A stretch of 64,000 bases of DNA, from NCBI GenBank assembly GCA_963752155.1, contig CAVVXH010000011.1:32001-96000 (forward strand), given 5' to 3'. This DNA comes from an uncultured Parachlamydiaceae bacterium. GTDB lineage: Bacteria > Chlamydiota > Chlamydiia > Chlamydiales > Parachlamydiaceae. The notes below the pieces were generated by a model that worked only from the letters and a program-made list of their open reading frames with translations, was not told where the DNA came from and did no database searches. This document shows, piece by piece, positions 8,053 to 9,348 of this stretch. The stretch's first letter is position 1. Each line of letters opens with the position of its first letter. The position numbers and the translations under genes are program-made.

Positions 8053-8493
8053 GTAAAAGTTATTACTGGCGCTATTTCAAGTTAAATTAGTAAAAAAATT
8101 TTTGGAGTGCGTGTGGCTCTGCCACCGCGCGAGAGATCTATTTGGATAGGTAATAGGTTTATTAAACGTAAAAGTTATTACTGGTGCTATTTCAAGTTAA
8201 ATTAATAAAAAAATTTTTTGGAGTGCGTGTGGCTCTGCCACCGCGCGAAAGGTCTATTTGGATAGGTAATAGGTTTATTAAACGTAAAAGTTATTACTGG
8301 CGCTATTTCAAGTTAAATTAATAAAAAATTTTTTGGAGTGCGTGTGGCTCTGCCACCGCGCGAGAGGTCTATTTGGATAGGTAATAGGTTTATTAAACGT
8401 AAAAGTTATTACTGGCGCTATTTCAAGTTAAATTAATAAAAAATTTTTTGGAGTGCGTGTGGCTCTGCCACCGCGCGAGAGGTCTATTTGGAT
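8053..8493 (+). repeat. Four ~115-bp tandem units, each with the REP hairpin GGAGTGCGTGTGGCTCTGCCACCGC
   Basis: Units start at 8053, 8168, 8284, 8399 (gtaaaagttattactgg...); near-identical; 4th diverges after about 8493. Confidence 0.95.
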
Positions 8494-8564
8494 GCGCACG
8501 TAATAGGTTCCTATATCAGTATAAATTTGAAATTGTATTGCTACAAGTAATCCTTAAAACGACT

Positions 8565-8645
8565 TCTCGCGCGGTGGCAGAGCCACACGCACTCCAAAAA
8601 ATTTTTTATTAGTTAACTTGAAATAGCGCCAGTAATCACTTTTAT
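8565..8645 (-). repeat. Inverted copy of the REP unit, forming a REPIN-like pair with unit 4
   Basis: tctcgcgcggtggcagagccacacgcactccaaaaaa...cttgaaatagcgccagtaat is the reverse complement of the unit's first ~80 bp. Confidence 0.93.
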
Positions 8646-8742
8646 GTTGGTACTCTCGCGCATCCGTTTTTTTTATTTACATTTACTCGCTTTTCATTTA
8701 CCGTATGACTTCAAAGAAAAATCTAAATATCAAGGCTAAACT

Positions 8743-9348
8743 ATGAAAAGATGGCACCACGCTCCCATGCATCTCTACAATACCGCCGGCACATATATGA
8801 TTACCGGCGCAACTTATTGCAAACAATTACTATTTAAAAAACCTCATGAATTAGACTATTTACATGATCTATTGTTAGATTTAGCTAAACTATATGATTG
8901 GAAATTAGAAGCTTGGGTTTTATTCCCAAATCATTATCATTTTCTAGTTCAATCACCCGAAAATTCAAAATCATTACCCGATTTCATTAGACATTTTCAC
9001 TCTGTTTCAGCAAAAATGCTTAATCTCCAGCACAACACCCCTAATAGATTAGTCTGGTTTCAATATTGGGATAGTAAAATTACTTACCAAAAATCATATT
9101 GTGCAAGACTCAATTATATAAATCAAAACCCCGTAAGACATAAAATTGTCAAATGCGCAAAAGATTACAAATGGAGCTCCGTCAGATGGTTTGAAGAAAA
9201 CGCACCCGAACCCTATTGGAAAAATATCAGTAAATTCAAAATTGATTCAGTCAATGTAGTCGATGACTTTGATTTTGAAACAGTTCAGGATATCAAAAAT
9301 ATCCCCCGCGATGAAATAACTGATCTTCAAAAAAATTTCATTAATTAA
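8743..9348 (+). mobile_element. rayT: REP-associated tyrosine transposase (RAYT, Y1 HUH / IS200-like)
   Basis: G.YMIT..T, PNHYH (HUH), W.QYWD, RLNYI.QNPV.H, Y.WSS; REP hairpins immediately upstream. Confidence 0.9.

Follow-up and report, generated by a model that had tools for sequence, protein, structure and literature searches.

The window analysed here, i.e., the whole 64,000-nucleotide stretch of DNA from an uncultured Parachlamydiaceae bacterium, contains a single-copy HUH/Y1 gene located beside a hairpin tagged with GGAG, of which 125 intergenic copies are found in the genome. Judging from the sequences and by analogy with enzymes that have been assayed, gene and hairpins would constitute a RAYT-REPIN system, in which the enzyme likely binds the hairpins, cuts and rejoins the DNA and spreads them as inverted doublets. 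We give this reading a probability of about 85%. Parachlamydiaceae live inside eukaryotic cells.

The gene beside the array

The RAYT / TnpA-REP gene (8743..9348, + strand) is an open frame of 201 codons. Its 201-aa product carries the HYH motif (H64-Y65-H66), a Y-x-x-x-NP motif in the form Y125-I-N-Q-N129-P, and H133. Y-x-x-x-NP is the signature of class 2 TnpA-Y1 proteins (PMC6006769, in part). The protein scored 98 bits against the NCBIfam RAYT model NF047646, whose cut-off is 80, and 27 bits against the IS200 model NF033573, below the cut-off of 55. The only Pfam match in the window protein was Y1_Tnp, and no C-terminal HTH was found over its 201 residues. The best sequence match in the PDB was E. 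coli TnpA-REP 4ER8 (E 9e-6), which was also the best fold match of the predicted model (E 2.5e-8, 22% identity). This model has a pLDDT of 82, with residues 1-8 and 177-201 under 50, the latter forming a low-confidence tail past the usual end of the family. Judged by these profile and structure matches, the gene belongs to the RAYTs rather than to the IS200 TnpA genes, as an earlier note made from the letters alone had proposed.

In a homologue search, 249 of 265 candidate proteins reached E <= 1e-10; among the matches listed, the 119 besides the query are 42-57% identical to it. When the query was aligned with 38 relatives, residues H64, Y65, H66, W105, W109, Y125 and H133 were invariant in 39/39 sequences, and all 39 matched NF047646. 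The assembly, 80% complete with 3.13 Mb on 22 contigs, contains the gene once, and no second gene of the subfamily was found in it. The protein had 0 matches in 72,556 plasmids and none in viral contigs. Besides, there is no tnpB beside the gene and no inverted repeat of note around it.

A tandem array of half-REPINs upstream of the gene

Upstream of the gene, Tandem Repeats Finder delineated a tandem repeat at 8053-8493 (period 115, 3.8 copies, 97% matches, score 838), with units starting at 8053, 8169, 8284 and 8399. Tandem unit 1 (8053..8168, +) is made of a 51-nt 5' arm, the REP hairpin at 8104-8128, the first 40 nt of the REPIN spacer and a junction. It is followed by tandem unit 2 (8169..8283, +; REP 8220-8244) and tandem unit 3 (8284..8398, +; REP 8335-8359). 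The fourth unit and the inverted unit together make up an ordinary, complete lineage-A REPIN (8399..8648) consisting of a 5' arm, a REP at 8450-8474 (+), the spacer, an inverted REP at 8571-8595 (-) and an inverted arm, which is predicted to fold into a single long hairpin (-98 kcal/mol). The inverted unit (8556..8648, -), i.e., REP plus arm, is the right half of this REPIN and an inverted copy of the first ~93 bases of the unit, whereas units 1-3 repeat its left half. In the array, the left half of one REPIN (arm, REP and part of the spacer) has been duplicated locally, head to tail. Since units 1-3 are left-half repeats of an ordinary REPIN, the AT-rich flank of each REP is the normal arm and spacer and is not specific to the array.

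The 25-nt REP is letter-identical in 5/5 units (8104, 8220, 8335 and 8450 on the + strand, 8595 on the - strand) and forms a hairpin in which a single base is bulged (z of the short folds, -2.3 to -2.8). Over the first 95 columns, the units differ pairwise at 0-7 aligned positions, and units 3 and 4 are identical. The 83-bp gap downstream of the gene (9349..9431) contains no REP copy within 5 mismatches.

Most of what the earlier note had described at this locus holds: an intact gene is indeed preceded by four direct units of ~115 bp and by one inverted unit, each unit carries the GGAG-footed bulged hairpin, and the downstream gap is free of REPs. The inverted unit, announced as ~80 bp, measures ~93 bp (8556-8648). 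The amplified unit is made of a REP and an AT-rich flank as claimed, but this is no peculiarity of the array, most dispersed copies carrying the same long arms. An Rfam search gave nothing approaching a gathering score, and a promoter and terminator scan gave signals no higher than the shuffle level. A CRISPR-like array was also considered and rejected, the units being whole repeats without unique spacers.

A dispersed population of REPs and REPINs

The genome-wide count of the hairpin motif that the earlier note had suggested gave 125 REP copies (up to 5 mismatches of 25) vs 0 in the reversed genome, so that chance is excluded. These copies fall into 73 clusters, i.e., 45 inverted pairs, 26 singlets, one double pair and one tandem array. 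All of the 48 inverted doublets (48/48) have their feet outside, and they show what defines a REPIN or BIME, namely two inverted REPs, a conserved spacer and repetition of the unit. None of the 125 copies lies in an ORF of >= 100 aa, and such ORFs cover 79% of the genome according to a crude caller. The gene beside the array has five REP copies upstream and none downstream; the rest are dispersed between genes, and the REP search located one of them, a lineage-B singlet, in the window at 24074..24098 (-).

Three lineages were distinguished by stem and spacer, the arms differing too: A with 71 copies, B with 41 and C with 13. The foot and most of the stem are common to all three. Spacers are conserved within the doublets, of which 24 belong to A, 19 to B and 5 to C. 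The mean identity of typical-length doublets was 86% in A (n=13), 96% in B (n=16) and 93% in C (n=5). Long arms outside the hairpin are common to the copies, with a median of 60 nt, ragged ends and internal deletions; deletions are indeed common in arms and spacers alike. Hybrid copies, in which the arm of one lineage is joined to the spacer of another, were also found.

Several copies show further irregularities. Insertions are present in the REPIN spacers at C5:118429, C11:297084, C15:43428, C11:159427 and C19:8772 (contig and position), four of them palindromic and belonging to at least two further repeat types. In the GAAG-footed REP copies at C2:188003, C8:14041, C8:141799, C11:159769 and C15:43711, the foot is preceded by an extra ~60-nt module, which begins with GGAG after a normal arm. 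These copies may belong to a fourth type of hairpin or have had a sequence inserted at the foot.

The genome also contains a second repeat family of 249 arms in 152 clusters, with 93 inverted doublets and long nested hairpins, which is found in the window at ~29060-29350. It flanks a second Y1 gene (C10:596100-598060) encoding a 338-aa protein with a weak DnaA-C HTH match. Relatives of this gene have similar terminal inverted repeats and, from its sequence features, gene and repeats are a TIRYT/TIRtron. Two arms of the second family lie in tandem upstream of the second Y1 gene. In 9/125 REP copies (e.g., C12:29318 and C11:140933), the outer end of a long B or C arm consists of part of a second-family arm, located at a nearly constant 140-148 nt from the REP; these nine copies are hybrid elements of the two Y1 systems. 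Finally, mirrored arrays of 9-bp repeats occur in the window at 44710-45188, 21875-22070 and 52254-52473, such words being abundant genome-wide.

The GGAG foot across the subfamily

A scan of genome contigs recovered at least 583 relatives among 600 stretches, from which 80 loci were kept, belonging, among the matches listed, to Chlamydiota, Acidobacteriota, Verrucomicrobiota, Planctomycetota, Chloroflexota, Armatimonadota and other phyla. Addition of 31 chlamydial loci gave 111, and removal of 7 with an open frame under 130 residues and of 5 duplicates left 99. At least two GGAG-footed hairpins were present within 450 nt of the gene at 76/99 loci, vs 18 in the reversed control. The corresponding figures were 5/99 (control 22) for the GTAG foot and 17/99 (control 14) for GTGG. 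Among the 85 loci with full flanks, the motif stood on both sides in 66, on one side in 10 and on neither in 9.

The 198 hits comprise 48 distinct perfect stems. In an alignment of 16 REPs, hand-picked because they fold and biased accordingly, 5/8 stem pairs change on both sides and 97.7% of the cells are paired. The six bases before the stem (T-G-G-A-G-T) are invariant in 16/16 of these REPs, and a T precedes GGAG in most hits. These patterns support the hairpin as the putative cognate REP of the RAYT, with an invariant GGAG-containing foot, and across the subfamily they link this protein type to a T-GGAG-T-GCG foot with a variable, covarying stem. When the REPs of 15 relatives were aligned with that of the window, a short T run resembling an intrinsic terminator was seen after the stem in most subfamily REPs and is missing from the window REP.

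Copies of a 10-base foot motif were also counted in 40 relatives, which are kin and not independent of each other. The 8/8 with a strong protein match have 25-372 copies; among the other 32, 29 have <= 21 and three have 27-82, with 0-11 in the reversed controls. A profile search of five motif-rich or borderline relatives found distant Y1 proteins only, with no subfamily gene in the latter three (G009, G010 and G014, drafts 57-96% complete).

As far as comparison of these loci can tell, the GGAG tag marks a RAYT subfamily across many phyla and is not a chlamydial trait. The proposal of a GGAG-type RAYT/REP system stands, and a chlamydia-specific tag was rejected. Tandem REP-containing units adjoin 7/99 subfamily genes. 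Tandem arrays were also seen at other chlamydial RAYT loci, with 25-nt units around REPs (L003, genome G033), 193-nt whole-REPIN units (L002, G012), 123-nt units with a GGAA foot (L007, G007) and 112-nt units (L109, G275). Of the two features singled out in the earlier note, the tandem array is real, and one-sidedness is the state of a minority (10/85 loci). One-sidedness as a special trait was likewise rejected.

Predicted reading of the tag and cleavage site

In E. coli, the four bases of the foot are needed for binding and cleavage; bases 3-4 are free to pair with the CT cleavage site and bases 1-2 are held by the protein (PMC3479197, in part). Residues W94, Q95 and R104 are conserved in the subclasses linked to GTAG (PMC6006769, in part). 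In a profile alignment, these residues correspond to W105, F106 and T114 of the window protein, which departs from E. coli at the positions of Q95, H101 and R104. Residue 114 is T or S in 94/94 sequences scored. Residue 106 is never Q; a Q occurs at 107 in 66/94, so the match of Q95 hinges on a gap. From these alignments, the change of foot appears to track changes at tag-binding positions, as a correlation only.

By analogy with the E. coli enzyme, the RAYT likely binds the GGAG hairpin on single-stranded DNA, and would likely cut and rejoin DNA near the hairpin, thereby spreading inverted doublets. GGAG would serve as the guide, with the cut still at C|T. Indeed, GGAG differs from GTAG at the second base only and retains A and G at bases 3-4, from which C|T cleavage is predicted. 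The foot of a Marinomonas RAYT has been changed and the enzyme thereby retargeted (PMC8266576, in part).

The outer arm ends were examined for traces of such a cut. In a reference-based test of 69 distinct end positions, CT or AG was observed 15 times vs 17.7 expected, and pairwise extension of the arms revealed no dominant dinucleotide at their ragged ends. CT/AG is therefore not enriched there, and the predicted cleavage site drew no support from this test. One type of arm nevertheless tends to end at an AG, 18 arms stopping within three bases of it. The ragged ends may reflect decay after insertion.

Locus history and distribution

In both congeners (2/2), prfC and the groES region are no more than 0.2-0.8 kb apart, so that the ~7-kb RAYT block is absent from this site there. 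In one congener (G001), a different contig bears a disrupted gene with 44% identity, and no RAYT gene was found in the other (G002, 85% complete). Among 400 Chlamydiota genomes, 26 (about 6%) match at E <= 1e-30. A quick tree, built from a sample biased towards query-like sequences, had a weak backbone and very long outgroup branches and did not place the subfamily among the published subclasses. A single clade of the 29 chlamydial sequences was not rejected (p-AU 0.33), and the history may be one of inheritance with loss or of repeated transfer. RAYT position is described as fixed within species (bioRxiv 10.1101/2021.07.10.451892, in part).

The RAYT block (5624-12134, ~7 kb) also encodes a SycD/LcrH-like chaperone, with a score below the cut-off. 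Two further ORFs in it, one of 543 aa and one of 900 aa, the latter with a hydrophobic stretch at its N-terminus, matched nothing in Pfam or NCBIfam and may encode secreted proteins. At 12668-14157 of the window, groEL is spread over several short frames, which suggests frameshifts or sequencing errors there.

Alternative explanations

RAYT-driven or rolling-circle amplification, suggested in the earlier note, is one candidate origin of the array, but neither the array junction (spacer to arm, at a site other than CT or AG) nor the element ends bear the CT signature expected of it. Replication slippage or unequal recombination at the long palindrome, i.e., host processes alone without a RAYT cut, would account for that junction and leave the system otherwise as described. 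The frequent deletions within other arms and spacers point the same way, as does the identity of units 3 and 4 over 95 columns, which homologous expansion predicts. In favor of the enzyme's role, the sole tandem REP cluster of 73 adjoins the RAYT gene, and the only short-period tandem arm among the 152 clusters of the second family adjoins its own Y1 gene, a pattern noticed after the fact. E. coli TnpA-REP moreover joins multiple REPs by strand transfer in vitro, and a rolling-circle-like model has been proposed (PMC3333891, in part). We consider host processes alone to have an even chance, and the odds that the RAYT initiated the array are likewise about even; in either case, one junction-forming event would likely have been followed by homologous expansion. 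The arrangement itself is of a known type: REPs reiterated with flanking DNA in tandem clusters (PMC3733652, in part) and tandem REPINs (PMC3337134, in part) have been described. That the four units are an assembly artefact of one REPIN is very unlikely. No read or contig spans the array in the one public run found, a DNA run with a small share and no RNA counterpart listed; its short contigs, with a likeness of at least 90%, reach only parts of the stretch, and one of them links 8594 to 8744, i.e., the inverted unit to the gene start. Yet the units differ from one another by private differences (0-7 positions), which argues against a pure artefact, and similar tandem units occur at 6 other loci in independent assemblies.

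As regards the RAYT-REPIN system as a whole, the idea that the gene is an ordinary autonomous IS200/IS605 transposase, with the hairpins as its ends, is hardly credible. The Pfam Y1_Tnp match would suit it, as would the lack of the gene-bearing block between prfC and groES in both congeners, from which the locus is not fixed. This reading was rejected on the model score below cut-off, the Y-x-x-x-NP motif instead of Y-x-x-x-Q, the single gene copy with no adjoining tnpB, and the 125 hairpins dispersed without the gene. A more serious possibility, which we nevertheless find doubtful, is that the RAYT serves lineage A only or is now inactive, B and C being orphans after gene loss or being copied by other RAYT genes that the 80%-complete assembly lacks. 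The lineages do differ in stem, spacer and arm, and the most uniform one, B (96%), is not beside the gene whereas A (86%) is; besides, the gene has a 25-residue tail and no downstream REP, and some chlamydial genomes contain two matches. On the other side, A, B and C have the foot and most of the stem in common, hybrid copies exist, frame and catalytic residues are intact, and the assembly yielded no second subfamily gene. The exact tag within the preferred RAYT-REPIN reading also has a competitor. As the invariant run before the stem counts six bases, the sequence does not fix which four form the guide; the tag could be a shifted or longer motif within T-G-G-A-G-T, and the cleavage site other than CT. 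This is unlikely in our view, even with the invariance of all six bases, the T before GGAG in most hits, the missing CT/AG signal at arm ends, and a Marinomonas RAYT that cuts at both CT and CA (PMC8266576, in part). GGAG shares three of its four bases with GTAG, among them both of those that pair with the cleavage site, and stands one base from the stem, inside the 0-2 nt range of PMC6006769; the AG end preferred by one arm type also speaks for it.

Meaning of the system

Copying of REPINs by RAYTs in vivo is a standing question, and the assayed enzymes in the literature reviewed all work on the GTAG foot. A compact subfamily in which one base of the tag is changed, with matching protein changes, offers a natural comparison between the bases read by the protein and those that choose the cut site. 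RAYT-REPIN populations are extended to Chlamydiota, for which no prior report was found, and screens based on GT(A/G)G miss GGAG repeats. The window locus is one more member of the subfamily, and its value is that of a test substrate, not of a new kind of system. A bolder reading can be put forward tentatively and is, on balance, distinctly improbable: this would be an undescribed RAYT subclass whose tag was re-specified from GTAG to GGAG through changed tag-binding residues, and which here prefers to act in cis, producing tandem half-REPINs by its own gene, and moves long-armed elements that capture flanks, including an arm of the second (TIRYT) system. If this were true, the genome would be a natural test case for RAYT amplification of REPINs as well as for cross-talk of two domesticated Y1 transposases.

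Comparison with known systems

Literature searches for a chlamydial RAYT or REP returned only general surveys naming chlamydiae as a taxon label. GGAG is absent from the main texts of PMC3733652, PMC6006769 and bioRxiv 10.1101/119735, whose figures or supplements may hold further entries, and no GGAG-foot motif occurs in four text supplements of PMC3733652. In the accessible portions of PMC4690160 and PMC2817692, GGAG appears only within other sequences or as a count. Table S1 of PMC6006769, covered in full for part 1 of 7 and by term for the rest, has one matching REP row, so the GGAG REP type is already in print there as one supplementary-table row; the same table gives a GGAG double-foot repeat for another genome. 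The row belongs to the Chloroflexus aurantiacus REPtron ABY36092.1, filed under subclass 2.2, for which 1/4 REP consensus rows starts with GGAGTG and has a GC-rich stem. The other three rows are GGCGTG, and the likeness to the window system is by listed REP only.

The claim that no RAYT/REP system is characterised in an intracellular lineage holds in part: no paper was found for chlamydiae, but Coxiella burnetii provides a precedent (PMC2817692 Table 1, in part), being an intracellular bacterium with a RAYT and dispersed REPs. It differs as a Gammaproteobacterium with a GTAG foot and 29-40 copies. The group 3 (subclass 2.5) RAYT-REPINs of Pseudomonas, Stenotrophomonas and Marinomonas, as far as the published portions consulted describe them, resemble the window system in that their short stems stand at 1-2 nt from the foot, their genomes have several REPIN lineages, and tandem higher-order arrays occur. 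They differ by a GTAG/GTGG foot and by a RAYT position fixed within species, whereas the window block is absent at its site in two congeners. The HYH proteins of subclass 2.8 (PMC6006769; Cyanobacteria) share NHYH with the window protein but are set apart, by description, by a proline-rich N-terminus and by GT(A/G)G REPs that are long, the REP here being short and GGAG-footed. Class 1 IS200/IS605 elements have Y-x-x-x-Q, many near-identical copies and subterminal hairpins at both ends, all of which the window gene lacks. The TIRYT/TIRtron (PMC3733652; subclass 2.1 of PMC6006769) is alike as a Y1 gene flanked by a repeat family, but in the window system the protein lacks a C-terminal HTH, and short hairpins with a foot take the place of terminal inverted repeats.

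The closest comparison is offered by the E. coli K-12 REPtron (TnpA-REP = RayT/YafM, PDB 4ER8, with REP/BIME; subclass 2.2 of PMC6006769), which shares the HUH and Y-x-x-x-NP core, a W-S-S-type C-terminal extension, a single chromosomal copy, a bulged hairpin with a four-base foot, inverted doublets and tandem clusters near the gene. The window protein is about 22-25% identical to it and differs by its HYH motif and by T/S in place of R104; its REPs lie on one side only, have long conserved arms (median 60 nt) and carry a GGAG-T foot in place of GTAG. The GT(A/G)G foot of the canonical GTAG/GTGG REP families is likewise replaced by GGAG-T in the window. The window system is a member of the RAYT family by every feature that allowed a clear test except the canonical foot, and belongs to an uncharacterised subfamily with a GGAG foot, found here in a chlamydial host.
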